From an uncultured cyanobacterium (lineage in GTDB: Bacteria > Cyanobacteriota > Cyanobacteriia > PCC-6307 > Cyanobiaceae), in NCBI GenBank assembly GCA_963765575.1, contig CAVXWZ010000002.1:160001-224000 (forward strand): a stretch of DNA of 64,000 bases, given 5' to 3'. The notes under the pieces were generated by a model. It had not been told where the DNA came from, did not search any database, and saw nothing but the letters and a program-made list of their open reading frames with translations. Position numbers and translations under genes: made by a program. Of the stretch, positions 23,238 through 38,469 are shown one piece after another; positions within the stretch are counted from its first letter, which is position 1, and every line of letters starts with the position of its first letter.

Positions 23238-24581
23238 TTAATTGGTGAAGATGCGATAGATGGAGGCGGCGTTGAGCACCGGACCCAGGGGGGTCACGGC
23301 CTGCAACAGGAAGTCGTTGAAGCGGGTCCAGCCGTTGCGGGGCACCACCACCATGTCGCCGTTGTGCAGGGAGGGATTGGCCGGCGAATCCAGCGGTGCC
23401 GAGGGGTCAAAGATCACGCTGCGCACACTCACCTCACCGCTGGGTTCCACCCGGATCAGGCGGATCTCCTTGGTATTGGCCCGCAGCGGATCCACATCCC
23501 CAGCGGCGATCACAGCGGAGGCCAGCGGGCTGTTGGAGCGCACCTGGGTCAGGCCCGGCTGCACCACCTCACCCACCACCATGACGCCGATGGTGTCCGG
23601 GGCGAAGTTGGAGGCGGCCGTGCGGATCAGCACATCACTGGGCTGGGGTGTCTCTGCGCGGGCCACCCGAACCATGTCGCCGTCGTAGAGCAGGGGATTG
23701 ACGGTGCTGCGGTTGTTCATCAGCACCTCCAAGTAGTCGAAGCGGTACTCCACAGGCTGTCCACCGGGCACGGCGCTGGGGCGGCTGAGCACAACCTCGG
23801 AGAGGTCGGCGATCGCGGTGATGCCACCGGCCCGCTGCACCGCATCCACCAGGGTGGGCCAGCCGGCCGTGGCGATCGTGGTTTCCGAGGCGGCCGGCCC
23901 AGCCGCCGCCAGACGGGCCGCCTCCCCACCCTGGGTGAGCGTGTAGAAACCGGGCCGCTGCACCTCGCCCAGCAGGGTCACGCGCACCGGACGCGGTGCC
24001 AACAGATCGAGGTACACGAGCGGGTTGCGCAGGAAACGGTCGTAGCCCTCGGTGATGCGTTGACGCGCCTCGTCCATGGTCAGCCCCCAGACGGGCACGG
24101 CGCCCAGCCGGGGCAGGTTGACCGTGCCGTCGGCCAGCACCTCAACCACCGCCTCGTAGCCCTTCACCATGAACACGGACATGGTCAGTCGATCCCCCGG
24201 GCCGAGGCGATAGCGAAAGCCCCTGCTGCCGGGATCAATGCTGACCACGTTTGGCTGGCGCAGGGCCTGGGGCGCCGCTGGGGCGCTGCCCAGGGGAGAG
24301 CGCTTGCGGGTTTCTGCCCCCCTGGCGGCCGGCTGGGTGTCGGTGGCGGCAGGAATGGATTCGGCGGCGGCGGGAATCGGATCGCCGGGAGCCTGATCGG
24401 GGATCGGGAAGGCCTCGGGCTGGTTGGCGCCCTGGGCCAGGGTGCGGGGCGGCGCCCCCAGGGCCGTCACCAGCGCTCCGACGGGCAGCAGGCTCAGGGG
24501 GGTGAGCAGCAGGGCGGCGGCCCGGCGTCGCAGCCCGCGGCGGGCGGCTCGGTCTGCTGCGGTGAGGGGGGTAGAAGACAC
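23238..24581 (-). CDS. Outer-membrane polysaccharide export protein (OPX; Wza/KpsD-like, SLBB domains)
   Basis: YRLGPGDRL, VLADGTVNLPRLG, GEVQRPG, GEVVQPG; signal-like N-terminus and amphipathic C-terminal helix. Confidence 0.88.
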   Translation of the reverse strand: MSSTPLTAADRAARRGLRRRAAALLLTPLSLLPVGALVTALGAPPRTLAQGANQPEAFPIPDQAPGDPIPAAAESIPAATDTQPAARGAETRKRSPLGSAPAAPQALRQPNVVSIDPGSRGFRYRLGPGDRLTMSVFMVKGYEAVVEVLADGTVNLPRLGAVPVWGLTMDEARQRITEGYDRFLRNPLVYLDLLAPRPVRVTLLGEVQRPGFYTLTQGGEAARLAAAGPAASETTIATAGWPTLVDAVQRAGGITAIADLSEVVLSRPSAVPGGQPVEYRFDYLEVLMNNRSTVNPLLYDGDMVRVARAETPQPSDVLIRTAASNFAPDTIGVMVVGEVVQPGLTQVRSNSPLASAVIAAGDVDPLRANTKEIRLIRVEPSGEVSVRSVIFDPSAPLDSPANPSLHNGDMVVVPRNGWTRFNDFLLQAVTPLGPVLNAASIYRIFTN

Positions 24582-24675: not shown

Positions 24676-25644
24676 GTGAAGACGACCGACGGAAATCCGC
24701 TGAATCTCTCCGCCGCGATCGCTCTTCCCCAGGATCGGGTCCAAGCGGATCTGGCTCCCTTCCTGCTGCTGTCCTCCCAGGGCCTGGATCTCTACCTGCT
24801 GCCCGGCGAGCGCTTTGGTCCCTACGCCGAACCGGTGGGGGAGCTGCGCGAACTCACCTACCGACAGCAGCTCTCGGGCTCCGGCAAGAGCCGGGATCTG
24901 GACAGCCGCGATCCCCATTACGACCACTTCCTGCTGGTGGAGAGCAACAGTGGCGAATTGGCGGGATCGGCACGCCTGCAGTTCGTCCCCGCTCGCGCGA
25001 GCGGCGACCAATCCGCAGCGGGGTTGCCGCCCTTGCCGGGTGGGGCGCAGTCCTACCTGGAACATGTGTATCCGGGCATCAAGGCCCATCTGGCCAGCCA
25101 GGGCAACCACCTGGAGATCGGCCGTGTGGCCCTGGCGCCACGGTTTCAGCGTCAGCCCCACACCCTGATGCTGCTGTTTCGCGGCGGTCTTCAGGTGGCC
25201 GTGGGAGCCGGTTACAGCTCCATCCATGGTCTGGTCTCCTACAACCACTTCGCCTACGACGAAACGGTGAACCGGGAGTTTCTCAGCACCCTGCTGCGTC
25301 CCCCCTTCCTCGATCCCTCCAGCCCCCATCCACAGCCGCGCCATCCGGTGGCAGGTCTCGCCCCCGCGCCCAGCCCCGCTGCCGTGGCCAGCATCCAGGA
25401 ACTGGAACTGCACATCCGCCACGACCTGGACCCATCCTTCCGTCTGCCCGTGCTGCTGCGCCAGTACTTCAACCTGATGGAGGCCAGCGTGCGCAACCTC
25501 TCTCTGGCCCGGGACTTCAACCAGATCACCGAGATCCTGATGGCCGCCGATCTGCGGCGGATCCCGACCCGCCGGCTGGAACACTTCATCGACGTCGACC
25601 ATCGGCCGATCTACCGGAGTTTCAGCTGGTACCGGGGAGGATGA
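24676..25644 (+). CDS. GNAT-fold N-acyltransferase (OlsB/Acetyltransf_5-like, N-acyl amino acid synthase type)
   Basis: GELRELTYR..GSGKSRDLDSRDPHYDHFLLV, LEIGRVALAPRFQR, LPVLLRQY, DFN; resembles the N-acyltransferase domain of ornithine-lipid synthases. Confidence 0.78.
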   Translation: MKTTDGNPLNLSAAIALPQDRVQADLAPFLLLSSQGLDLYLLPGERFGPYAEPVGELRELTYRQQLSGSGKSRDLDSRDPHYDHFLLVESNSGELAGSARLQFVPARASGDQSAAGLPPLPGGAQSYLEHVYPGIKAHLASQGNHLEIGRVALAPRFQRQPHTLMLLFRGGLQVAVGAGYSSIHGLVSYNHFAYDETVNREFLSTLLRPPFLDPSSPHPQPRHPVAGLAPAPSPAAVASIQELELHIRHDLDPSFRLPVLLRQYFNLMEASVRNLSLARDFNQITEILMAADLRRIPTRRLEHFIDVDHRPIYRSFSWYRGG

Positions 25645-25701
25645 GGCCGTGCCATTGAACTGGTACGTTGCCATCCGATCAAGGCGTGGCCGAGGGACTT
25701 G

Positions 25702-26052
25702 ATGCACGCAGGCCCCGACAACGACAGCAGCGGAGCCGCGTCCCCCATTCCTGGCGCCAATCGCCAACCGAGGGCCCACGACACCGCCACTCCCGGCCGG
25801 CAGAGCCTGCAGGAGCGGCTGATCGAGATTCTGCAGCGCATCTCAGGGGCTGATCCGGAGCAGATCACCCCTGATGCCCGGCTGATCGAAGACATCGGCA
25901 TCGACTCCCTGGGCTTCTACGAAATCCTGATCGAGGCGGACGAGTGCCTGGGCATCAAGATCCGGGAAGAGGATCTGCTCGGCTTCCGCACCGTGGGGGA
26001 TGTGCAGCGGCACCTGGAGTCCCTGGAGCGGGACCATGGCCCGAACAACTGA
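25702..26052 (+). CDS. Acyl carrier protein (cluster-specific)
   Basis: ITPDARLIEDIGIDSLG phosphopantetheine-Ser motif, FRTVGDV; about 35-aa N-terminal extension, start uncertain. Confidence 0.88.
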   Translation: MHAGPDNDSSGAASPIPGANRQPRAHDTATPGRQSLQERLIEILQRISGADPEQITPDARLIEDIGIDSLGFYEILIEADECLGIKIREEDLLGFRTVGDVQRHLESLERDHGPNN

Positions 26053-27292
26053 GCGCATCGCGGTCACCGGCTGGGGGGCCATCACCCCGCTGGCCGCCGA
26101 TGCCGACGCCACCTGGGCGGCCATGGTCGCGGGCCACTCCGGCATTACGGCCCTAGACCAGGCCTGGGCCAGCGACCTGCCCGCCCGCATCGGCGGCTGC
26201 GTTGCCGAGGACATCGCCAGCGAGCTCGAACCGCTCCAGCGCCGCCGCCTGGATCGCTGCTCCCAGCTCGGCCTGCTGGCCGCGCGCCAGGCCTGGGCCC
26301 AGGCCCGACCGCAGCTGGCGGGGATCGATGCGGCCCGGGTGGCGGTGGTGATCGGCACGGGCATCGGCGGGCTGGCGACCCTGGAGCGGCAGCACCGCAA
26401 TCTGCTGGAGGCCGGCCCGAGCCGGGTCAATCCGCTCACCGTGCCGATGCTGATTCCCAATGCCGCAGCCGGCCAGATCGCCATTGACCTGGGCTTGCAT
26501 GGCGGCGCCCACACGCCGGTGTCGGCCTGCGCCTCCGGAGCGGAAGCGCTGCTGCTGGCCCAACTGCTGCTCAACGACGACCGCGCCGACGTGGTCATCG
26601 CCGGCGGCAGTGAGGCGCCCGTGAACCGGCTGGGCCTGGTGGGCTTTGCGGCCATGCGTGCCCTCTCCTGCCGCAATGGGGCCCCGGATCAGGCCTCCCG
26701 CCCCTACGGCCGCGACCGGGACGGCTTCGTGCTCTCGGAGGGGGCGGGGGCGCTGGTGTTGCAGCGGCAGAGCGACCTTGCCCCCGGCGCTCCCCAACCC
26801 CTGGGCTGGCTGCTCGCCTGCGGCAGCAGCAGCGACGGCCACCACATCGTGGCGCCGGAGCCGCAGGGGCTGCGGGCCAGCGCCGCCATGGCCGACGCCC
26901 TCAGACGGGCCGACATCGGCGTTGACGCCCTGAGCTTCGTGCAGGCCCATGCCACCGGCACGCCGCTGGGCGATCTGGCGGAGGCCCGGGCGCTGGCCCG
27001 AACCCTGGGTGCCCGCGTCGAGGACCTGCCGGTGACGGCCCCGAAGGGCCAGCTGGGCCACCTGCTCGGAGCCGCCGGAGCCGTGGAGACGATCCTGGTG
27101 CTGCAGGCCCTGCGCCAGGGCCTTGTGCCCCGCAGTGTCAACGCCGACCCCCTCGACCCGGCGATCGCGCTGGCGGTGGTACAGGACGGTCCACTCCGGC
27201 TGCCGGGCGGTGCCGACGGCGGCGAGCGCTACGCCCTCAAGAACGCCTTCGGTTTCGGCGGCCACAACATCAGCCTGGTGCTGGCGGCCTGA
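26036..27292 (+). CDS. fabF: Beta-ketoacyl-ACP synthase II (FabF-like, cluster-specific)
   Basis: Cys-His-His triad: SACASG, QAHATGT, KGQLGHLLGAAG; NAFGFGGHN; overlaps the ACP stop. Confidence 0.9.
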   Translation: MARTTERIAVTGWGAITPLAADADATWAAMVAGHSGITALDQAWASDLPARIGGCVAEDIASELEPLQRRRLDRCSQLGLLAARQAWAQARPQLAGIDAARVAVVIGTGIGGLATLERQHRNLLEAGPSRVNPLTVPMLIPNAAAGQIAIDLGLHGGAHTPVSACASGAEALLLAQLLLNDDRADVVIAGGSEAPVNRLGLVGFAAMRALSCRNGAPDQASRPYGRDRDGFVLSEGAGALVLQRQSDLAPGAPQPLGWLLACGSSSDGHHIVAPEPQGLRASAAMADALRRADIGVDALSFVQAHATGTPLGDLAEARALARTLGARVEDLPVTAPKGQLGHLLGAAGAVETILVLQALRQGLVPRSVNADPLDPAIALAVVQDGPLRLPGGADGGERYALKNAFGFGGHNISLVLAA

Positions 27293-29312
27293 GGGCGGGG
27301 CCGGCGTAGTGGGCCTGAACGGCCTGCACGAAGGCGCGGCGGTCGCCCGGCTGCTCCTGGATCTGCAGCTCCCGGGCGCGGCCCCGGCGGCAGTGGATCG
27401 TGGCCAGGGGGGCCGTGAGCCGGGAGAGCAGCAACCGCAGCGGCCGATAGAGGTCGCTGGCCGAAGTGGAAAGCCCGTAGTAGCTGAAGGTCCAGGGCAC
27501 GATCAGGGCTCCATGCTTGCGGGCCAGGATCAGGGCGCTGGCGGAAACCCGCTCGCTGATCGGCGTCACCAGGGAGCCATTGGGGGCCAGCATCACCTGG
27601 CCACGCTGGGCCAGCGTGCGCGACGCCCCGTACACGGCCGAGGTGCGCGAGCGGCCATCGCGATGGTCCATCAGGCCATGGCCGGCATTCGCCGCCGAGG
27701 CCGCGAACCAGGGCATGATCCGGCTCAGGTGCAGGCTGGCGGTGGTGATGCTGGGGAGCCGCAGCACCCCCTGAACCACCAGCACATCGGCGGGGTGCTC
27801 GTGGTTCCAGATGTGCACCAGGGGAAGGCCCTCGGGCTCGCTGGGATGGCTGTCATCCACCACCACGCTGATGCCCAGGGCCCGCAGTCCCACCAGGGCC
27901 GTGGCGACGAGCAAGCGGGCGGCCAGCCGGCGGCAGCCCAGAGCCAGCGCCAGCAGTTGCAGCCCGTAGACCAGGAAATAGGAGACCCCCCAGAAGGATC
28001 GGGCCAGCACCCGCAGCGGCAGCAGCAGGCGGTTGTCCCGGGCCGCTTGGCCGGGGGCGGGAAGCTGCGGGCGCGGTGACAGCCGGCGGGCCTCCGGTCC
28101 AATGGGGAAGGTGGTGCGGAAGGGGAAGTCGCCGTCGAAATTGCCGTTCACCTGCGTGGTGGTCACCAGGTGGTCGTAGAAGCGGTAAAAGAGCGGCCGG
28201 TCGCTGGTATGGGGTTCGCGCCAGAACTGATCCAGGGGCTGCTGATCGGTGAGACCGGGGAGGTTGTAGAAGGTCTGGCCCATCACCTTGGTGGGTACCG
28301 CGTGATAAAGGGCCTGCAGTCCCACGGAGCTGTTGACGGTCACCACGCCGCGACAGGTGCGCAGGAAGCGGCTGAGGGCACCGTCATGGAAGTAGTGCAC
28401 CCGGCCCGCCAGCCCATGGCGATGGGCCAACAACTGGATCAGCCGTCCGTAGTGGTTGTAGCCCCGGTCGCGGGGGTGGTGCTTGAAGGCGAGGTGGTCG
28501 GAGGCATGGGCATGGCGGGCAAAGGAGGTGATCACGTCTTCGATGAAGTCGTGCATTCCCCGGTAGGGCGAACCCAGCTGCACCTGGGAATCACTCGACA
28601 CCTGCAACACCACCAGAAAGAACGAGAGGTGCTCCAGCAGGCGCTGTTTCAGGGTGCGCTGCTGCCAGCGATAGAGCCAGTAGCGCCAGTTGCCGCGCAG
28701 CTGGCACCAGAGAAAACGCGGCGAGGGCTGCAGCTTGTGCTCACCCTCGATGATCGGGTACCGGGTGAAGGCGTGCTGGATGAAGGTGGGGGCCTTCCAG
28801 AGCTTGCGCCAGCGCCAGCCGGGATCCAGCTGGCCCTGGGGGAGCGCATCCACCGGCGGCAACTGGTGGTAGAAGTCGGCGGGCTGGTTGAGATTGGAGC
28901 GGGCATTGACCCGCTCGCGCTCAAGGGTCACGTAGTTGGGCCGGATGTAGCCGAGCTCGAACACCCAGGCCTCGATGCCGGCGCTGCGCGCCTCTTCGAT
29001 GGCCATGCGGTGGGGAATGATGAAGTCGCCATACATGAAGATGTGGCGAATTCCGCGCTCGACGATCAGCTGGCGCAGAAACGGCCGCCACTCCTCCATC
29101 GAGCCACTGAAGGGCACCCGCACCTCCCGGGGGAAGCCGAACTCATGCAGCGGGAAGCTCACCTTGGTGACGGGAATGCCGCAGCCGCGCAGGTAGCGGC
29201 AGAAGCGGGCGAAGAACAGTCCGATCGGCCCCATCAGCAGCAACACCGGCCCGTCGATCTGCACCTGAACCAACTGCACCGGAGCCGGAGCGGGGGCCCG
29301 TTCTGTGGTCAA
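27270..29312 (-). CDS. kpsS: KpsS-type (GT107) capsule protein fused to a C-terminal PlsC-like acyltransferase
   Basis: VLLLMGPIG.FF, FELGYIRPNYVTLE, LQVSSDSQ, KHHPRD, TVNSSVG, TQVNGNF; then a hydrophobic segment, WNHEHPAD (HX4D), LAPNGS, ALIVPW. Confidence 0.88.
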   Translation of the reverse strand: MTTERAPAPAPVQLVQVQIDGPVLLLMGPIGLFFARFCRYLRGCGIPVTKVSFPLHEFGFPREVRVPFSGSMEEWRPFLRQLIVERGIRHIFMYGDFIIPHRMAIEEARSAGIEAWVFELGYIRPNYVTLERERVNARSNLNQPADFYHQLPPVDALPQGQLDPGWRWRKLWKAPTFIQHAFTRYPIIEGEHKLQPSPRFLWCQLRGNWRYWLYRWQQRTLKQRLLEHLSFFLVVLQVSSDSQVQLGSPYRGMHDFIEDVITSFARHAHASDHLAFKHHPRDRGYNHYGRLIQLLAHRHGLAGRVHYFHDGALSRFLRTCRGVVTVNSSVGLQALYHAVPTKVMGQTFYNLPGLTDQQPLDQFWREPHTSDRPLFYRFYDHLVTTTQVNGNFDGDFPFRTTFPIGPEARRLSPRPQLPAPGQAARDNRLLLPLRVLARSFWGVSYFLVYGLQLLALALGCRRLAARLLVATALVGLRALGISVVVDDSHPSEPEGLPLVHIWNHEHPADVLVVQGVLRLPSITTASLHLSRIMPWFAASAANAGHGLMDHRDGRSRTSAVYGASRTLAQRGQVMLAPNGSLVTPISERVSASALILARKHGALIVPWTFSYYGLSTSASDLYRPLRLLLSRLTAPLATIHCRRGRARELQIQEQPGDRRAFVQAVQAHYAGPALRPPAPG

Positions 29313-29367: not shown

Positions 29368-31377
29368 TCAGCGCTGCCGCAGCCGCCCCCAGTGCCGGAA
29401 GATCCGCTGCCGCAGGCTCAGGGGACGGGGCGGTGCCGAGCGCCAGGCCAGCAACTCCTCGATCGCCTGCTCCGGCTCGATGAACAGGCCGCTATGGCGG
29501 CTCACGTACAGCGGATAGTCGATCAGGGCGGCATGGACCAGGGCATCCAGGGGCAGGGGCCGCCCCCGGCGCTCGCAGCTCAGGCGGTCGTGGCTGAGGC
29601 CCCAGCCGGCGTAGAAGGGCAAGCCCCAGGTGTGCACCTCCAGCTCCCGCAGCAGGGCCTCGAAACCGGCGATCGAGGTGAGCACGTGCAGGGCATCGAC
29701 CTGGGTGAACAATTGCTGGATCGAGGCGTCCACCAGCAGCTCGTCACACCAGTCCAGTGCCGCGTGTTCCCCCGAACCCGGCCGGCACAGCCCCGCCACC
29801 ACGTCGGGGTGGGGCTTGTAGACGAGATGGGCCGAGGGCTCGGCGGCCCGCACCGCCTGCAGCAGAGCCAGATTGGTGCGCAGCCCGGGGGCCCCCAGCC
29901 GGATTGAGGCATCGGCTTCCACCTGTCCCACCACCAGCACCACCCGGCGGGCAGCGTCCGGACGGCGCCAGGCCGGGGCCAGGAGGTTGTACTTCGTGAT
30001 CGCCTGCTCCACCAGCCGGCTGCGCAGACCCCGGGCCCGCAGCAGTTGCCTGTCGTCCCATGACCCGGTGGCCAGCAGCTGTTCGAGCTCACTGGGGGCG
30101 CTGGCGTCGTAATAGATGCCGCGCCGGTCGATCACCCAGGACATCGGATCGATCAGGTCGGCCCCAAGCCCCACCGAGCGCAGGAAGCCGTCCTCGGCGT
30201 GCAGCAGCGGCAGATCGCGGCGGCGGGCCGCCTGCAGCAGGGCGGGCTTGGCGCGCCGGCCCCACACCGCCAGCGCCTCGGCGCGGCGGCCCGGCCGCTG
30301 CCAGGGAAACCGGAACCGCAACCGGCTGCCGGCCAGGAAGCGGCGCAGCACCCGCTGTTTCCAGGGGGTGAAGCCGAAGGCCTCGATGCGCTCGGGATTG
30401 CGGCAACGGTGCCGGCGCTGCAGGCCGATCGCCGTGATCAGGTCCTCCACCGCGCAGGGCCGCTGCCGGTGGGGATCGATGTACACGGCGTAATCGACCA
30501 GGGCCGCATGGATCAGATCACCGAGCTGCCGCGGCCCCCGCCGCGCGGGCGCGGGGGCGTGGTCCCGGGTGAGTCCCCAGCCGCCATAGAAGGGCATGCC
30601 GAAGCAGTGCACCGGCCGGCCCCAGAGCAGGGCCTCAAAGCCCAGCTGGGAGGTGACCACATACACCGCCTCAGCCCGCTCGAGCAGGGCCGCGGGGTGG
30701 CCGCCGCTGGCCTCGAGCTTGATGCGCGGATGCCGCAACTGGCGGGCCTGGAAATGGCCGCGCTTGCGGCCGCGGACCACATCCGGATGGGTCTTGACGA
30801 CCACCGTGCGCTGCGGATGGTCGGCCAGGGCGGCGGCGAGCATGGCGGCGAAGCTGCCGCGATCGGCCCCACCCAGGCCGATCGAGAGGTCACCGGCCGT
30901 CTGATCGACCACCAGCACGAAGGGCTCGGCCGGCGCCGCCGCCTCGCGGCTGCCGTTGTACTTGCTCACCCGCTGCTGGCACCACAGGCGGCGGATGGCG
31001 GCGGCCCGCAGCAACTGGGCCGGGCTGTGGGCGGCAGCGATCAGGCGCTCCAGGCGGGAGGGGGCGGCGGCGGCGTAATAGATGCCGGCGTCATCGATCA
31101 CCAGGCCCAGGGGCACGCTGTCGGGCCCCAGGCCCAGGGAACGCAGAAAGGCGTCTTCACAGCGCCAGAGCGGCAGCTTGCGCCGCCGTGCCAGCCGCTC
31201 GGCCCGGCGGGCGCTGGGCTTGTGGCCCCAGGCCAGCAGGGCATCGAGCTCGGCGCCGGCGCAGCGGGCCGCCCCGCTCACCAGGTGGTGGTCGGCCAGC
31301 AGCGCCGCCAGGGTGCTGTGGCGCAGCATGCCGGCGGCCGGCAGCCCCAGACGGGCCGCGGGGAGAGGAGAGGCCAA
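29368..31377 (-). CDS. kpsC: Capsule biosynthesis protein KpsC (two GT107 domains)
   Basis: Duplicated EDAFLRS/EDGFLRS, GIYY, SKYN/TKYN, QTAGD/QVEAD, KTHPD/KPHPD, PFYGGWG/PFYAGWG. Confidence 0.93.
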
Positions 31378-31441
31378 GGGCGTGGAGGCGCCTGCAGGCG
31401 GGGCGCCTGGCTGGAGCGGGGCTCAGGTTACCGACCGCGCC

Positions 31442-31744
31442 ATGGCTGCTACGTTCAGCCCCACCGCTGCCGGGGACACGGCCAAGGTGCTGATCGACAG
31501 CTTCATGGACTCCTCCATCGACCGGCTCTGCGCGGCGGTCGCTGAAGAGGTGGGCATGCCCGTGGGGCGGGTCCGCCGGGTGGTGCTGGCCCTCCAGCGC
31601 CAGCGGCAGCGCTCCATGGCCGGCATCGCGGCGGCGAGCGCCGCGGCTCCCGGTCTGGAGGCCGCTGCGCCCGATGATCCCCTGCGCTGGTATCCGCTCG
31701 GGGCCAATGGCCGGCTGCGTCCCCCCGGGCCGGATCAGCCATGA
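31442..31744 (+). CDS. Hypothetical protein (100 aa), first gene of the neuA operon
   Basis: ATG 31442; ATGA overlap with neuA. Confidence 0.6.
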   Translation: MAATFSPTAAGDTAKVLIDSFMDSSIDRLCAAVAEEVGMPVGRVRRVVLALQRQRQRSMAGIAAASAAAPGLEAAAPDDPLRWYPLGANGRLRPPGPDQP

Positions 31745-32493
31745 GCAGCCCCGGCGCCGCGGCCGCCATCGATTCCGACCTGCCGGCCCTGGCCCTGATC
31801 CCGGCACGGGGCGGCTCCAAGGGCGTGCCGGGCAAGAACCTCCGCAGCGTGGGGGATGTCGCTCTGCTCGCCCGTACGGTGCGTGCCAGCAGAGCGGCCC
31901 ACAGCATCGGTCCCGTGTGGGTGAGCAGCGACGACACGGCCATCGGCGCCCTCGCCGAGCGTGAAGGGGCCGGCTGGTTGCGGCGACCAGCCGACCTGGC
32001 CGGGGACAGGGCCTCCTCGGAGCAGGCCCTGCTGCACGCCCTGCACGCCCTGGCCCAGCGGGGACCCCTGCCCGGGCTGTTCGTGTTTCTGCAGTGCACC
32101 TCGCCGTTCACCCGCCCGGAGCACATCGATGCGGTGGTGGAACAGTTGCAGGCCAGCGACGCCGCCATGGCGTTCAGCGTTGTGCCATGGCACGGTTTCC
32201 TCTGGGGTCGCGATGGCAGCGGCCACGGCGTGGGGGTGAACCACGATCCCAGCCTGCCGCGCCCGCGCCGCCAGGATCTCCCCCCGACCTACCTGGAGAC
32301 CGGGGCGATCTACGCCATCCGCATGGGGCCCTTTCTCGAGCAGGGCACACGCTTCGTGCTGCCCACCCTGCCGGTGCCGATCGACGCTCCCGCACCGGAG
32401 ATCGACAGCGCCGAGGATCTCGCCCTCTGCCGACAGCTGGCCCCCCTGCTGGATCGGCCCCTGGCCGGAACCAGCGTGGAGATCACCCCTTGA
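31741..32493 (+). CDS. neuA: CMP-nonulosonate synthetase (acylneuraminate cytidylyltransferase)
   Basis: IPARGGSKGVPGKN, VSSDD, LQCTSP, RRQD, ETGAIY, EIDSAED; no C-terminal HAD domain. Confidence 0.92.
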   Translation: MSSPGAAAAIDSDLPALALIPARGGSKGVPGKNLRSVGDVALLARTVRASRAAHSIGPVWVSSDDTAIGALAEREGAGWLRRPADLAGDRASSEQALLHALHALAQRGPLPGLFVFLQCTSPFTRPEHIDAVVEQLQASDAAMAFSVVPWHGFLWGRDGSGHGVGVNHDPSLPRPRRQDLPPTYLETGAIYAIRMGPFLEQGTRFVLPTLPVPIDAPAPEIDSAEDLALCRQLAPLLDRPLAGTSVEITP

Positions 32494-33779
32494 GCTGCCT
32501 GCAGGGAAAACACGTCGCCGCCCTGGCCTGCTTCGATTCGTTCGGCAAGACGGCCATGAACCTTCTGCATGTGGCGCGGCGGGAGGGTGCCGAGACCACC
32601 CTGCACCTGATGGAGCTGCCGGGTCGCAAGCTGTCCCGCCGCCAGGTGCTGGAGATCCGCCGCATCGCCCCGCGCACAGTGGTGCGTCAGCACCTGTGGG
32701 ATCAGCTGCGCAGTCTGCGCAGCGAGCTGGCCTCGCTCGACGCCCTGGTGCTCGGCCTTGATGGGCGACGCACCCGGGAGACCCTGCTGCTGCTGCAATC
32801 GGAGTGGGCCGGTGAGCCGCGGCGGCCCGTGCTGGTGAGTGCCTACCCCGGCATCCTCTTCCGCCATCAGCTCGAGGGGATGATGGACCGCTCCGGCGTG
32901 GATCTGCTCTGCCTCAACGCCGACGTGGACGGGCAGCTCTACCAGCGCGGCTGTGGGGCCCTGGGACTCGATGGCGGCAACGCCCTGGTGACCGGCCTGC
33001 CGATCCTGTGGTCGCTGAAGCCGCGGCAGACGGCCCCTGAGCAGGGCCCGATCGTGTTCTTCGAGCAACCCTCGGTGCCGGACAACCCGATCCAACGCAA
33101 ATACCTCTGCCGCCGCCTCGCGGATCTGGCCCGGGCCTGGCCGGAGCAGCCGGTGATCTTCAAGCCCCGCACCTCCAGCGTGGAGGCCACCCTGCACCGT
33201 CACCACGGCGAGATGACCCGCCGGGTGGCCAAGATCAGCCGCAAACTCACCAACCTGCGGATCAGCCACAAGCCCAGCCTGGCGCTTCTGCAGCGCTGCG
33301 CCTGTGCCATCACCGTGTCCTCCACCGCCGCCATGGAGGCCATGGCCCTGGGGGTGAGCACCCGCATCGTCACCGACCTGGGGGTCAACGAGTCCCTCGG
33401 CAACCACTACTTTCTCGGCTCCGGAGCCCTGGCCGACTTCGACGCCATCGTGCGCGACCCCTTCACCCCCCGCCACGACGGAGACTGGCTGCACGCTCAC
33501 GGCTACTGCCGCGAGGGCGCGGAGCGCTTCGTGGCGGCCCTGACCGCCAGGCTGGAGCAGCCGCCGGTCCCCGGCGGCCAGGCCCGGCCTGGCCCTCCCG
33601 GCTGGGGCAGTGAGGCCTGGCAGGCCTACGCCCTGGCCCGGGGCGGACGGCGCATGCTCAGTTCGGCCGGCGCCCGCTCCCGCCAGGGGGCCAGCCACCG
33701 CGGCCGCGATCTGCTGCGCCGCATCCGCGAGCAACTGGTGGGGATGTGGGGGATGGAACGGCTGCTCAAGGGGCGATGA
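32490..33779 (+). CDS. DUF6716-type putative glycosyltransferase (paralog 1)
   Basis: SAYPGI, DLLCLN, TGLP, FFEQPSVP, IFKPR, TVSSTAAMEA, DLGV..LGNHYFLGSG; TTG start overlaps the neuA stop. Confidence 0.8.
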   Translation: MSCLQGKHVAALACFDSFGKTAMNLLHVARREGAETTLHLMELPGRKLSRRQVLEIRRIAPRTVVRQHLWDQLRSLRSELASLDALVLGLDGRRTRETLLLLQSEWAGEPRRPVLVSAYPGILFRHQLEGMMDRSGVDLLCLNADVDGQLYQRGCGALGLDGGNALVTGLPILWSLKPRQTAPEQGPIVFFEQPSVPDNPIQRKYLCRRLADLARAWPEQPVIFKPRTSSVEATLHRHHGEMTRRVAKISRKLTNLRISHKPSLALLQRCACAITVSSTAAMEAMALGVSTRIVTDLGVNESLGNHYFLGSGALADFDAIVRDPFTPRHDGDWLHAHGYCREGAERFVAALTARLEQPPVPGGQARPGPPGWGSEAWQAYALARGGRRMLSSAGARSRQGASHRGRDLLRRIREQLVGMWGMERLLKGR

Positions 33780-34840
33780 GGCTGGCCCTGATCAGTGATT
33801 CCGTGGCCGCCCTGCAGGCCAGCTGCCGCCTGGCGCGGCTGTTGGAAGCGGCTGGGATCGGCGTGACCCGGATCGTCTCGCCGGCTCTGCAGGCGCAGCT
33901 GCAGGGCCCCTCACCCGCCAACGCCAATGCCAACGCCGAGGCTGTACTCGTGCTGGAGCCACTCGGCCTCGCCAGCAGCGAGCTGATGGACCACTTCGAT
34001 GGGGCGGGGGTGTTCCTGGCACCCGAGCTGCTGCAGCCCTTCCGGAACGCCTACCGGCGGGCGGCCCAGCTGCGTGGCCGCCCCCCCCGGCCCCTGTTCA
34101 CCGGGCCGTTGCTGCCGCTGGTGGGCGATGGGCTGAGCGAGGATCTGTTGCCCCGGCTGGGCTACGACCTGATCTGCCTGCACGGACAGACGCAGGTGGA
34201 GGAGCTGGGCTGGCTGATCCAGGGCACGGCGCACGCCGCCCAGGTCCACGCCGCCATCGGCCTCTGGAGTGTGGCCACCGCACCGATCGGTCTGGCTGTC
34301 AGTGAGCAGCCGCAGGTGCTCATCCTTGAGCAGCAGGAGATCCCTGCGGGGGCCCGGGAGACGGCCCTGCTCTATCGCCGGTTCAAGGGCCTGGCCCTGG
34401 CGTCTCCGGACTGGATCGTGCGCCTGCAGCCCGACCAGCCGCTGCCGAGCGATCCCGAGCTGTGGAGTGAGGCGACGTTCGCCTGGCAGTACCACCAGGA
34501 CGGCGCCCGGCCCGCCAACCTCCAGCTGGGGCGGCATGACGACCTGCCCCTCAGCCTGATGCAGGCCTGGGCCTGCCTGGGGATCAGCTCGAGCTGGCTG
34601 CTGAGCGCCATGGTGTGGGAGAAGCCCACAGCGGTGCTGGGGGATTACGGCATCCGCACCGAGTTCGGCGGTCCCCTGTTCTTCGGTTCCGGCACGATGC
34701 GCCGGCTGGCGGACTGTCAGCCGTTGGAGCAGCTGCTCAAGGTGCCAGCGGCCAATCCCGGCTGGCTGGCCGACCTGGGCTGGGCGATTGACGATGGACC
34801 GCAACGGCTGCGCCGAGAGCTGGAGGCGCTGGCCCGATGA
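33776..34840 (+). CDS. DUF6716-type putative glycosyltransferase (paralog 2, divergent)
   Basis: RLALISDS, RLGYDLICLHG, ILEQQEIP, GDYGIRTEFGGPLFFGSG; ATGA coupled on both sides. Confidence 0.75.
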   Translation: MRLALISDSVAALQASCRLARLLEAAGIGVTRIVSPALQAQLQGPSPANANANAEAVLVLEPLGLASSELMDHFDGAGVFLAPELLQPFRNAYRRAAQLRGRPPRPLFTGPLLPLVGDGLSEDLLPRLGYDLICLHGQTQVEELGWLIQGTAHAAQVHAAIGLWSVATAPIGLAVSEQPQVLILEQQEIPAGARETALLYRRFKGLALASPDWIVRLQPDQPLPSDPELWSEATFAWQYHQDGARPANLQLGRHDDLPLSLMQAWACLGISSSWLLSAMVWEKPTAVLGDYGIRTEFGGPLFFGSGTMRRLADCQPLEQLLKVPAANPGWLADLGWAIDDGPQRLRRELEALAR

Positions 34841-36148
34841 CCCTGTCGTTGCTGCTGGTGGCCGACAGCGACAGCCAGTTGCTGGCCTGCCAGGCGCTGG
34901 CGCGCTGCGCCGATGGGCACCGGGCCCGGGTGACCGTGAACGCGGTGCCACGGGAGGGCACCCCCGCCGCGGTGCTGGAGGCGCTGCAGAGCGATCGGGC
35001 ATGTGCGGCAGCAGCCTCTGCGGCAACTGCTGGCCGACAACCGTCTGGATGACTTCGATGCCATCGGGGTGTACCTCACCGGCAGCAAGCTGGCGGAGTT
35101 CCGCAGCGTGTACCTCACCAGCCGCCGACAGCAGCAGCGGCCGCCGCGGCCCCTCTTCTGCGGCTTCAACGGTGTGGTGCTGCAGCGCTTCGAGGAGGCG
35201 ATCGCCTGGCGGCTGGGCTACGACCTGATCTGTCTCAATGGCCCCCGCGACCAGGCCCGGCTGGAGCTGATGCTGCGGCACACGCCCTTTGCGGGCCAGC
35301 GCTCTGTGCTCACCGGCCTGGGCCGCCAACAGGGCGGCGGGAGCGGCCTTGAGCGCGCCAAACGGATGGTGTTCGCCGAGCAGGTGGTGATGCCGGCTGA
35401 CGGGGACGAGCGCCGCCGGCTGGTGCGGATCCTGGCGGCCCTGGCCCGCCGCTCTCCCGATTGGGAGCTGCTGATCAAACCCCGGGTTGCCCCCCATGAG
35501 AGCACCTTCCACGCGGTGGGCACCCACATCAGCGACACCTTGGTGGAGACCCTGGGCAGCCCTCCCGCCAACCTGCGGCTCAGCTACGCGCCGCTGGCGG
35601 ATCTGCTGCCCAGCAGCCGCCTGCTGGCCACGGTGTCGTCCACCGCCGTCTTTGACGCCCTCGACCTGGGCTGCAGGCCTGTGGTGATGGGCGATTTCGG
35701 GCTGCGTCAGGATCTCGGCAGCCCGTTCTTCGCCGGCTCCGGGCTGCTGCGCAGTTTTGAGCAGGCCGCCGACCTCGACAGCCTCGCCTCCGGCTTGTCG
35801 CCCAACCCCGACTGGCTGGAGTGGGTGGGCTACCACCCCCGCTTCACACCCGACAACCTGCTCGATGCCTTGCAGGAGCTGGCGGACCAGCCCCGGCGGC
35901 CGGCGCCTGAACTGCAGCATCCGGGCTACACGATCAACGCCGCCGAGCTGGCCACCAACCAGCTGCGTCGGGCGGCAGAAGCCGCCATGCGCCGCGCAGA
36001 TCCCAACGAGGCGATCCGCCTGCTGGAGATCGCCCAGCTGCAGCGGCCCGACAATCGCAACATCGCCCGGCGCCTGGCAGCCATGCGCCTCACCAACCCG
36101 ATCGCACGCCGGCTGGCCCTGCTGGTGACGCCAGGCTTTCGGCCGTAG
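34837..36148 (+). pseudogene. DUF6716-type glycosyltransferase (paralog 3) with a +1 frameshift near 35000, probably a sequence error
   Basis: LLVADSDSQ in frame 34837; GFNGVV, RLGYDLICLNG, FAEQVVMP, IKPR, TVSSTAVFDA, FFAGSG in frame 35003; short TPR-like helical C-terminus. Confidence 0.78.
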
Positions 36149-36183
36149 ATTCAGCCCACCAAGACAAGTCAGGCGGAGAGTCG

Positions 36184-38469
36184 GTGCAAGCGGTACAGAT
36201 CGAGCGCAACTTCACCCAGTTCGTCGTCTTCGCTGAAGACTCGATCCTCTCCGCCCTCAACAAGATCACGGCCAACAAGTCGCGGCTGATCTTCGTGGTC
36301 TCGGAAGGCGGCATCCTGCAGGGGGTGCTCAGCGACGGCGATTTCCGGCGCTGGATCGGCGGCAGCGATGTGATCGACCTGGGCCGGCCGGTGACCGCGG
36401 CCATGAACCCCACCTGCGTCTCCGCCTGCGATGGCACTCCCGGCGCCGAGCTGGCGGACCTCTTCTCGCAGAAGATCCAGGTGATCCCGCTGCTCGACGA
36501 CCACGGGCGGGTGGTGGCCGTGGCCCGCGCCGCCAAGCGCCAGCTGCAGCTGGCCGGCCGCCCGATCGGAGAGGGCGCGGCCGCCTTCGTGATCGCCGAG
36601 ATCGGCAACAACCACAACGGCCGTGTCGATCTCGCCCTGCGGCTGATCGATGCCGCCGCCGCCGCCGGCGCCGACTGCGCCAAGTTCCAGATGCGCGACA
36701 TGGGGCGCCTCTACGTGAACGCGGGCGACAGCAACGACATGGCCTCCGACCTGGGCACCCAGTACACGCTGGACCTGCTGGAGCGCTTCCAGCTCAGCGA
36801 CGACGAACTGTTCCGCTGCTTCGAGCACACCAGGGCGCGGGGCCTGATCCCGCTCTGCACCCCCTGGGACGAGACCAGCCTGGAGAAACTCGACCGCTGG
36901 GGCATGGCCGGCTTCAAGGTGGCGTCAGCGGACTTAACCAACCACGGCCTGCTCAGCGCCATCGCCGCCACCGGCAAGCCGCTGATCGCCTCCACCGGCA
37001 TGGCCACCGAACAGGAGATCGCCTCCGGCATCCGCCACCTGCGCCGACAGGGAGCCTCCTTCGTGCTGTTGCACTGCAACTCCACCTATCCCACGCCCTT
37101 CAAGGACGTGAACCTGCGCTATCTGCCGCGGCTGGCGGAACTGGCCGAGGGGCCGGTGGGCTACTCGGGCCATGAACGGGGCTTTGCCGTGCCGATCGCG
37201 GCCGTGGCCCTCGGCGCGGCCGTGGTGGAGAAGCACATCACCCTCGACCGCACCATGGAGGGCAACGACCACAAGGTGAGCCTGCTGCCCGAGGAGTTCC
37301 AGGCGATGGTGGCCGGCATCCGGGCGGTGGAGGAGTCGATGGGCTCGGAGGCCGCCCGCAGCATCAGCCAGGGGGAGCTGATGAACCGGGAGGTGCTGGC
37401 CAAGAGCCTGGTGGCGGCCTGCCCGATCGCGGCCGGCACCCCGGTGACCCGCGAGATGGTGCGCATCCAGAGCCCGGGCCAGGGCCTGCAGCCCTACCGG
37501 CTCAACGACCTGCTGGGCCGCTCCCTGAGTGGCAGCAAGGGCGAGGGCGAGTTCTTCTTCGAGTCTGATCTGCATCGGCCCGCAGCCTTGCCCCGGCCCT
37601 ACCGCTTCGCCAACCGCTTCGGCGTGCCGGTGCGTTACCACGACCTGGCCAGTTTCTCCGGCGCCAGCAACCTCGACCTGGTGGAGATCCACCTCAGCTA
37701 CAAGGATGTGGAGGTGGACATCGACGCGGTGCTGCCCCCGCAGGTGCCCATGGGCCTGGTGGTGCATGCGCCGGAGCTGTTCGCCGGCGACCACACCCTG
37801 GATCTCTGCAGCCTCGATGCCGACTACCGCTGCCATTCGGTGGCCGAACTGCAGCGGGTGATCGACCTCTCCGCCCGCCTGCGCCGTCGCTTCAACTGCC
37901 CCGAGCCGGTGCAGCTGGTGACCAACGTGGGCGGTTTCTCCAGCCAGCGCCACCTGGGCCCCGGGGAGCGGGGGGCACTGCTGGAGCAGCTGGTGCAGAG
38001 CCTGCGTCAGCTGCACGGCGACGAGGTGGAGATCATTCCCCAGACCATGCCGCCCTTCCCCTGGCACTTCGGGGGCCAGCGCTTCCACAACCTGTTCGTG
38101 GACGCCGAGACGATCGAGGCCTTCTGCCGCAGCCAGGCCATGCGGGTGTGCCTGGATGTGTCCCATTCCAAGCTCGCCTGCAACCACCTGCACGAACCCT
38201 TCTCCGTCTTCCTGGAGCGGATCCTGCCGTTCACCGCCCACCTGCACCTGGCCGATGCGGCCGGCGTGGACGGTGAAGGTCTGCAGATCGACGAGGGCGA
38301 AGTGGACTGGGCCAGCGTGTTCCGCCTGCTCGATCAGCTGGCTCCGCGGGCCTCCTTCATCCCCGAGATCTGGCAGGGCCACAAGAACAACGGAGAGGGG
38401 GCCTGGCTGGCGCTGGAGCGGCTGGAGCACCACCAGCTTGCGCAGCAGCGCACCCCGGTCGCTGCATGA
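36184..38469 (+). CDS. neuB: Nonulosonic acid synthase (NeuB family) with N-terminal CBS pair, SAF domain and C-terminal AP-endonuclease-2/sugar-isomerase TIM barrel
   Basis: GVLSDGDFRR (CBS); IAEIGNNHNG, AKFQ, KVASAD, STGM, LHCNSTYP, GYSGH, EKHITLD; KSLVAA..SPGQG; CLDVSH, HLHLADA, PEIW. Confidence 0.92.
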   Translation: MQAVQIERNFTQFVVFAEDSILSALNKITANKSRLIFVVSEGGILQGVLSDGDFRRWIGGSDVIDLGRPVTAAMNPTCVSACDGTPGAELADLFSQKIQVIPLLDDHGRVVAVARAAKRQLQLAGRPIGEGAAAFVIAEIGNNHNGRVDLALRLIDAAAAAGADCAKFQMRDMGRLYVNAGDSNDMASDLGTQYTLDLLERFQLSDDELFRCFEHTRARGLIPLCTPWDETSLEKLDRWGMAGFKVASADLTNHGLLSAIAATGKPLIASTGMATEQEIASGIRHLRRQGASFVLLHCNSTYPTPFKDVNLRYLPRLAELAEGPVGYSGHERGFAVPIAAVALGAAVVEKHITLDRTMEGNDHKVSLLPEEFQAMVAGIRAVEESMGSEAARSISQGELMNREVLAKSLVAACPIAAGTPVTREMVRIQSPGQGLQPYRLNDLLGRSLSGSKGEGEFFFESDLHRPAALPRPYRFANRFGVPVRYHDLASFSGASNLDLVEIHLSYKDVEVDIDAVLPPQVPMGLVVHAPELFAGDHTLDLCSLDADYRCHSVAELQRVIDLSARLRRRFNCPEPVQLVTNVGGFSSQRHLGPGERGALLEQLVQSLRQLHGDEVEIIPQTMPPFPWHFGGQRFHNLFVDAETIEAFCRSQAMRVCLDVSHSKLACNHLHEPFSVFLERILPFTAHLHLADAAGVDGEGLQIDEGEVDWASVFRLLDQLAPRASFIPEIWQGHKNNGEGAWLALERLEHHQLAQQRTPVAA

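Follow-up and report, generated by a model that had tools for sequence, protein, structure and literature searches.

A KpsS-acyltransferase fusion in a picocyanobacterial capsule locus and its place in a putative lipid-building gene module

[quoted passage not shown] This KpsS-LPLAT fusion is real, conserved and lineage-restricted, and it lies within a larger lipid-building module. Taken together with an adjoining aminolipid-type N-acyltransferase of the GNAT family, the fusion makes it likely that these cells build their own capsule anchor, which is possibly phosphorus-free.

The fusion gene (27270..29312, minus strand) is a single stop-free frame of 680 aa with a coding-type GC pattern along its full length, and is identified by two Pfam domains and by fused homologs. 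Capsule_synth (PF05159) is matched at residues 91-392 (E 1e-57, 196 bits) and Acyltransferase at residues 493-609 (23.5 bits against a cut-off of 23). An AlphaFold model built from 57 sequences (mean predicted local distance difference test score, pLDDT, 81; predicted template modelling score, pTM, 0.54) aligns over residues 22-405 to beta-Kdo transferases (Z 14.5 for WbbB and 13.5 for KpsC, range 13.4-14.5) and over residues 426-677 to PlsC of T. maritima (5kym; Z 14.5, rmsd 4.3, 221 residues aligned), with GPAT and PatA reaching Z ~10 for the same C-terminal region. The PlsC match of the model stems from the VIA-align search; Foldseek with the whole model gave GT-B proteins alone among the matches listed. 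A profile of the C-terminal domain run against the PDB matched PlsC alone (E 1.5e-4). Pfam, fold match and PDB profile hence agree with the original prediction that a KpsS domain and a domain of LPLAT fold share one frame.

All parts of the gene lie on the minus strand. The KpsS domain (residues ~16-400, 28113..29267), assigned by PF05159 and the fold match to WbbB and KpsC, is followed by a proline-rich variable linker (residues ~401-427, 28032..28112), recognized by its alignment, a low pLDDT at 415-425 and a raised ratio of nonsynonymous to synonymous substitution rates (dN/dS). Two hydrophobic or amphipathic helices, a predicted membrane anchor (residues 428-478, 27879..28031), lead into the catalytic core of the PlsC fold (residues ~481-670, 27303..27872; Pfam, profile and fold). 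As residues 426-677 align with PlsC, the hydrophobic segment represents the two helices that PlsC itself has at its N-terminus, and not the separate part it was first taken for. A transmembrane reading of residues 428-478 was set aside given the borderline hydropathy and the match to the N-terminal helices of PlsC; it is also disfavoured because both domains should presumably face the cytoplasm. The translated frame contains TQVNGNF (residues 386-392, 28137-28157) with 288 aa downstream of it, and all the acyltransferase motifs initially pointed out: block I, NHxxxxD, with the catalytic dyad (N503, H504, D509; 27786..27806), block II, GHGLMDHR (27660..27683; alignment and PlsC profile), and, by alignment, block III, LAPNGSL (27570..27590), and block IV, ALIVPW (27492..27509). 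Positions 27786-27806 encode NHEHPAD, the full WNHEHPAD (residues 502-509) extending over 27786-27809. In the KpsS domain, E119 (in FELG), Q237xxxD241 and H279-P280 are invariant in 57 of 57 sequences. For KpsC, a Glu base, a QxxxD nucleophile and a leaving-group His in HP have been described (PMC10148158), and we infer that E119 is the counterpart of that Glu. The domain is 34-39% identical to enterobacterial KpsS and stays below equivalog level (275.6 bits against NCBIfam NF050054, cut-off 600).

An indel error joining two genes is ruled out by in-frame relatives, by frameshift comparison and by a constant motif spacing. The genome loci compared are the best 80 of 130, ranked against the fused query and hence biased to fusions; 78 of them contain the in-frame fusion, while the remaining two are cut off by the end of a contig. 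When the C-terminal part served as query, the 8000 candidates included 56 clusters of full-length proteins, 601-700 aa long, and in 54 of these both Pfam domains, Capsule_synth and Acyltransferase, are present. The distance from QVNG to NHxxxxD is 101-120 residues in 81 fused proteins, and comparison of the fusion gene with two close relatives gave no net frameshift. Among contigs (not reads) of related strains mapped on the join, one covers 28009-28159 gap-free, with 27866-27939 uncovered. In nine pairwise comparisons dN/dS was 0.05-0.10 for the KpsS domain and 0.16-0.37 for the LPLAT domain, which is thus under purifying selection. It is therefore highly improbable that the fusion is an assembly artefact or its C-terminal part a dead remnant: several apparent single-base frameshifts elsewhere in the assembly, as well as the separate genes of AT-rich relatives, would suit such an explanation, but the 78 in-frame loci and the constant spacing contradict an artefact, and an invariant dyad and a dN/dS far under 1 contradict a remnant. 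The 80 loci derive from records titled mostly Cyanobium, Synechococcus or unclassified cyanobacteria. Five (L039, L068, L088, L093 and L105) have titles counted as non-cyanobacterial, namely Bradyrhizobium, Mesorhizobium, Sphingobacterium, Pseudanabaena and Bifidobacterium; gene order or tree groups them with picocyanobacteria, and they are probably mislabelled bins rather than transfers.

The active site of the fused LPLAT combines an intact catalytic dyad with an altered acceptor region. The HX4D dyad (N503-H504-x4-D509) is invariant in 57 of 57 sequences. Aligned to PlsC, the invariant H550 occupies the position of the canonical block II Arg, N578 that of the block III Glu and L581 that of residue 159, so that the block II Arg, the block III PEG and the Arg after PEGT of PlsC proper are all absent (His, PNG and Leu instead); the score against TIGR00530 (PlsC) is 19.9 bits, the cut-off being 102.95. 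The same holds throughout the subfamily. Among its 61 best representatives, counting those covering the site, the block III residue is Ser or Asn in 41 of 43, the Arg159 position has Leu or Ile and never Arg (0 of 42), and block II has His or Tyr in 31 of 42. In 87 weaker, generic LPLATs, by comparison, block III has Glu in 72 of 76, the Arg159 position Arg in 58 of 70 and block II Arg in 72 of 77. Seven distant stand-alone LPLATs (P0126, P0128, P0135, P0138, P0141, P0147 and P0150) have FPS in block III; no plasmid match was found for the P0126 LPLAT. Binding of the glycerol-phosphate acceptor has been attributed to motifs II and III (PMC4280512), and Arg159 of PlsC is thought to hold the phosphate of lysophosphatidic acid, a position taken by Val in the aminolipid acyltransferase SalA (PMC8319176, a second-hand source for the PlsC roles). 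The original prediction had read the altered block III as a sign of an acceptor other than a glycerol-phosphate lipid. The Glu-to-Asn change alone is weak evidence for this, because block III varies among characterized bacterial enzymes, being given as FPXGXX (bioRxiv 2022.08.18.504050) or as FP[E/S]G[T/V] (PMC8319176); an OlsF-like protein compared here (the label being our own) has FPAGEV. The idea itself is strengthened by the lost arginines: the subfamily-wide replacement of both phosphate-binding Arg and of the block III Glu favours a phosphate-free acceptor, that is, one other than a glycerol-phosphate lipid.

These replacements also bear on the more conventional view that the anchor is ordinary phosphatidylglycerol (PG), the fused LPLAT re-acylating lyso-PG or Kdo-lyso-PG, or setting the acyl chain together with a local acyl carrier protein (ACP) and ketoacyl-ACP synthase (FabF2). 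All characterized KpsS proteins act on (lyso)PG (PMC10148158, PMC11666461), the LPLAT is of the HX4D type with PlsC as both its nearest structure and its nearest model, and R556 and R588, invariant in the LPLAT alignment, could stand in for the lost arginines. We nevertheless consider a PG anchor unlikely, since it leaves unexplained why an N-acyltransferase is the tightest partner of kpsS, and since the block II Arg, the block III Glu and Arg159 have all been replaced, while in human AGPAT1 either E178Q or R181A/K abolishes activity (PMC4280512). In addition, none of six proteobacterial kpsS loci matches either acyltransferase profile.

The N-acyltransferase is part of a three-gene unit facing the fusion gene. 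The gene order is kpsC, then kpsS-LPLAT, facing the unit GNAT-ACP-FabF2, with wza/kpsD beyond. The GNAT (24676..25644, plus strand, 322 aa) is of the OlsB/OlsF type as judged from PF13444 (45 bits, cut-off 22.4) and from similarity to the C-terminal half of OlsF (23% identity over 277 aa, E 1e-16). Matches to the C-terminal half of OlsF were obtained for all 58 aligned GNATs, to GlsB for 35 and to OlsB for 19, all of them weak and under cut-off; the window protein scores 44.8 bits against the OlsF equivalog at 620, and lower for other families, and its profile gave no significant match among solved structures. The ACP (25699..26052, plus strand; PF00550, NCBIfam) has its true start perhaps further downstream. 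FabF2 (26000..27292, plus strand; Pfam, NCBIfam), a second FabF-like ketoacyl-ACP synthase with Cys-His-His motifs, is 37% identical to a paralog elsewhere in the genome and convergent with the fusion gene, the 3' ends overlapping by 23 nt.

No gene accompanies kpsS more constantly than the GNAT, which is absent from the first account of this locus. Across the family, 301 genomes were compared, and KpsS and the GNAT each occur in 46 of them: 45 have both, one KpsS alone, one the GNAT alone and 254 neither, and the two exceptions are fragmented assemblies. The GNAT is located inside the locus in 79 of the 80 loci that offer at least 4.5 kb of room. The LPLAT subfamily occurs in 40 of the 301 genomes, all KpsS-positive, and the order kpsC-kpsS-LPLAT facing the GNAT is retained from ~70% GC down to ~25% GC. 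Trees of the linked genes, compared over 28 loci, are congruent, with one strong conflict per tree pair and a distance correlation of 0.89-0.92. Among 381 genomes of the phylum, PF05159 was matched in 22, mostly partially outside the picocyanobacterial family. A second fused clade keeps the GNAT without the ACP, FabF2 or the neuA/neuB block; in a clade lacking ACP and FabF2 a GT4-type glycosyltransferase gene lies between the GNAT and wza (L074:12915-13961, L083:12941-13966, L106:12965-14017), a candidate for the step from the Kdo linker to the polymer or for providing a sugar head group.

Natural variants show that the fusion is common but not required, as split, degenerate and LPLAT-less forms exist. 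Among the 46 KpsS genomes, 38 have an intact fused LPLAT domain, going by the open frame that the two domains share. In two others the fused domain has decayed and a stand-alone copy is intact; four, all of one genus, have a fused remnant with the helices kept and the dyad lost, one has a plain KpsS and one a fragment; in the last six no intact member of the LPLAT subfamily was found. Of 65 metagenome loci, 13 are fused (GC 55-69%) and 41, all AT-rich, have kpsS and LPLAT as separate genes in the same gene order, the contig also carrying the GNAT in 27 of these; the remainder are short or weak. The split loci are Prochlorococcus-like, and one related stand-alone LPLAT is annotated as Prochlorococcus. 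The original claim that acceptor acylation and first-sugar transfer are coupled in one protein can therefore not stand as a requirement: the two are separate neighbours in the 41 AT-rich loci, and the catalytic motif of the fused domain is gone in four genomes, while the domain is absent from one and is degenerate in three loci beside an intact stand-alone copy. Some marine Synechococcus carry a tandem stand-alone LPLAT duplicate behind the fusion (L058, L060, L061, L073, L125, L126 and L130), the fused copy having decayed in three of these loci. The split forms make up one clade, sister to a single fused sequence, L127 (support 100/99). Approximately unbiased (AU) tests reject a single clade of all fused forms (p 0.018 and 0.015) but not once L127 is excluded (p 0.18), with groups chosen after the first tree and with long branches and composition bias applying. 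The fusion may accordingly have arisen once and then split, or have had two origins. What the variants have in common is a conserved unit of KpsC, KpsS and GNAT, usually with the LPLAT.

A looser association is also conceivable, in which the product of GNAT and LPLAT is an aminolipid free in the membrane and merely co-inherited with the capsule, the fusion serving mainly as a membrane tether for a KpsS that still uses PG. Degenerate fused copies in seven loci, which keep the two helices and lose the active site, are what a tether would look like, split forms exist, and free aminolipids are common phosphorus-saving lipids (PMC12971839). This explanation appears improbable given that a stand-alone pathway should come and go independently, yet the GNAT is found without kpsS in only one of the 301 genomes, a fragmented one, and given that the decayed fused domain of marine Synechococcus is accompanied by an intact duplicate directly behind kpsS.

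The recipe of an OlsB-type and a PlsC-fold enzyme, tied to KpsS and with the phosphate-binding residues lost, points instead to an amide-lipid anchor. To judge from the sequences, there is about an even chance that the module builds an amide-linked lipid which is primed with Kdo by KpsS and serves as capsule anchor in place of PG. In such a pathway, an acyl chain would come from FabF2 and the local ACP or, in loci lacking them, from the housekeeping ACP. The GNAT would then attach it to the amino group of a small head group bearing a hydroxyl, giving a lyso-aminolipid, and the LPLAT, held at the cytoplasmic face by its two helices, would O-acylate this with a second chain, comparable to OlsA and the N-domain of OlsF. 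A sequence of this kind is known for OlsB and OlsA, which make acyloxyacyl aminolipids from acyl-ACP (PMC12971839). To go by its family, KpsS would add the first beta-Kdo and KpsC would extend it, whereupon KpsMTE and the Wza/KpsD protein would export the polymer of a group 2-like capsule. The chief effect of the fusion would be to bring KpsS to the site of lipid synthesis at the membrane, a helpful rather than essential arrangement, and lineages without an active LPLAT might employ a mono-acyl form or another acyltransferase. The more complete proposal is a tentative one, with a likelihood well short of even: the poly-Kdo-primed, ABC-exported capsule of picocyanobacteria would sit on an amide-linked lipid free of phosphorus, which an OlsB-like enzyme and a KpsS-fused O-acyltransferase would make expressly for it.

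In addition to the variability of block III, several observations weigh against an amide-lipid anchor. OlsB-type enzymes acylate amino acids, mostly without a free hydroxyl for Kdo, and a hydroxyl-bearing head group must therefore be assumed. The generic PlsC model is matched by 43 of 44 LPLAT members and OlsA models by 5 of 44, all far under cut-off, the best member reaching E 7e-4 with OlsA and the window protein itself being unmatched. The HX5D motif of the OlsF N-domain, SalA and SqdA is not present in the fused LPLAT, which is of the HX4D type. FabF2 is missing in 40 of 78 fused loci and in 11 of 11 GNAT-bearing split loci (some loci being short), and the LPLAT active site has been lost in at least two lineages that retain KpsS and the GNAT. 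Co-occurrence and congruent trees are no proof of one pathway, since linked genes travel together and related genomes are not independent. In the genome studied, both kdsA (G000:C2:543610-544399, L116/L117) and kpsE (G000:C2:225619-226666, L202/L203) are found in two frames owing to apparent frameshifts, which may mean that the pathway is broken in this strain, or else mis-assembly; if real, they imply impaired capsule and Kdo synthesis in this strain. Finally, the available text of a lipidomic study of two Prochlorococcus strains, whose locus status was not checked, makes no mention of aminolipids or ornithine (PMC9298688).

The surrounding genes are those of a capsule pathway. On the minus strand are kpsC (29368..31377), with two beta-Kdo transferase modules according to domain search and motifs (two sets of QxxxD, HP and ED(A/G)FLR), and a gene for an outer-membrane polysaccharide export protein of the Wza/KpsD type (23238..24581; Pfam, NCBIfam). 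Genes similar to kpsE, kpsM and kpsT are located 1.6-5.8 kb beyond the window end (G000:C2:225600-229800), and the genome contains kdsA, kdsB and kdsC/kdsD-like frames for Kdo, with kdsA split as noted above, as well as further PlsC-type genes besides the fused LPLAT. No promoter-like sites were found, the one terminator-like site is at chance level, and there was no phage match. A block that adjoins the module in this clade only (31741..38469, plus strand) encodes a NeuA-like cytidylyltransferase, three DUF6716 putative glycosyltransferases and a NeuB-like synthase. Its vicinity raises the alternative that the acyl enzymes decorate the glycan, the GNAT N-acylating an amino sugar or nonulosonic acid and the LPLAT O-acylating Kdo or the polymer. 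There are precedents in VexE, the acyltransferase for a sugar terminus of Vi antigen (PMC8760489), and in SqdA, which acylates a glycosylated lyso-lipid (bioRxiv 2022.08.18.504050). Against this, the GNAT belongs with the long OlsF-type enzymes that make lipids, and loci L074-L107 keep GNAT and LPLAT without a match to neuA, neuB or DUF6716 in the locus DNA available. Because they persist there, GNAT and LPLAT track KpsS and not the variable glycan, and glycan decoration seems quite unlikely.

Some further features of the region may be recorded. The NeuB-like synthase (36184-38469, plus strand), beside the DUF6716 genes and the NeuA-like gene, has N-terminal CBS and C-terminal xylose-isomerase-like TIM domains. 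A 94-aa frame between kpsC and neuA (31423-31707, minus strand) is without a Pfam match and was detected in nine close relatives. The capsule region continues over 38834-63959 with sulfotransferases, GT2 and GT61 glycosyltransferase genes, CDP-sugar and C-methyltransferase genes and several unannotated frames; the sulfotransferase genes suggest a sulfated capsule polymer. Apparent single-base frameshifts relative to two relatives occur at ~34990, ~38789 and ~38828 of the window (third DUF6716 gene; sulfotransferase gene). A second odd LPLAT, with PDG in block III, accompanies waaA and lpxK-, lpxB- and msbA-like frames elsewhere in the genome (G000:C11:127249-133270, L115 and L120), the last three labels being read from sequence; Synechococcus elongatus, used as control, gave no waaA match.

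In the full-text literature searched, outside which most subscription papers lie, no description of a KpsS-LPLAT fusion or of a cyanobacterial capsule anchor was found, nor any report of an aminolipid of the proposed kind in cyanobacteria. Database annotations already show the architecture of two domains, and the gene set is listed in one published supplement, where the fusion receives no comment. Cyanobacterial KpsS and KpsC were counted in a survey of the whole phylum, the available text of which does not speak of acyltransferases (PMC4594306). In published accounts KpsS and KpsC assemble poly-Kdo on (lyso)PG, Vi/VexE being the known variation, and a PG-poly-Kdo terminus is treated as conserved wherever kpsS and kpsC occur (PMC8760489, PMC11666461, PMC13721041). 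If the module makes a different lipid, the presence of kpsS and kpsC would cease to be a guide to the anchor, and another lipid under the Kdo linker would be acceptable to the ABC exporter; an amide-lipid terminus would be a third kind, beside PG-Kdo and the diacyl-N-acetylhexosamine (diacyl-HexNAc) of Vi. Very abundant phototrophs would then carry a capsule without spending phosphorus, which fits the enrichment of the Synechococcus cluster in N- and P-depleted over low-iron waters (PMC10119275). The split, degenerate and duplicated variants offer ready natural comparisons.

The cluster in question, Syn-eCAG_008, is the closest published counterpart of the module: kpsD, an acyl-CoA N-acyltransferase, ACP, fabF2, kpsS, kpsC and neuA are all listed (Dore et al. 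2023, PMC10119275). In the available parts of that work kpsS is labelled merely 'capsular polysaccharide export protein', neither the fusion nor an anchor role is noted, and the word 'acyltransferase' is absent from the main text. The locus resembles the group 2 system of E. coli in the PF05159 domain, the QxxxD, HP and Glu motifs, a kpsC directly upstream and, in the genome, the Kdo and kpsM/E/T-like genes. It differs in that canonical KpsS is a single-domain protein of ~400 aa, while here 280 extra residues have an acyltransferase fold, and in the adjoining OlsB-like GNAT, ACP and FabF, which are missing by profile in six of six proteobacterial loci; kpsS loci of S. meliloti and Microbulbifer have a polyketide synthase (PKS)-type gene in their place. 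The rkp-1 region of Sinorhizobium (RkpA PKS, RkpGHIJ) likewise places lipid-building genes beside a kpsS homologue, their product apparently being a lipid that acts as carrier or anchor (PMC3557214), but with unrelated enzymes (a PKS, a pyridoxal phosphate-dependent enzyme and a short-chain dehydrogenase/reductase) and no fusion; the picocyanobacterial module may provide a handle on the old question of their role. With PlsC and other lysophosphatidic acid acyltransferases, the fused LPLAT has in common the NHxxxxD dyad and a fold that matches over 221 residues, N-terminal helices included; it differs by His in place of the block II Arg, Asn or Ser in place of the block III Glu and Leu in place of Arg159. 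OlsB with OlsA, the fused OlsF, and GlsB with GlsA share the pairing of a PF13444 GNAT with a PlsC-fold O-acyltransferase; here, however, the O-acyltransferase is fused to KpsS and not to the GNAT, the pair is tied to a capsule locus, the dyad is HX4D where OlsF, SalA and SqdA have HX5D, and all family scores are under cut-off. The Vi antigen systems, lastly, are alike in that a dedicated acyltransferase, VexE, makes a capsule anchor other than PG, a diacyl-HexNAc terminus (PMC8760489, PMC13721041). They do so without kpsS and kpsC, whereas both genes are kept in the picocyanobacterial locus, so that a Kdo linker would there sit on a different lipid.

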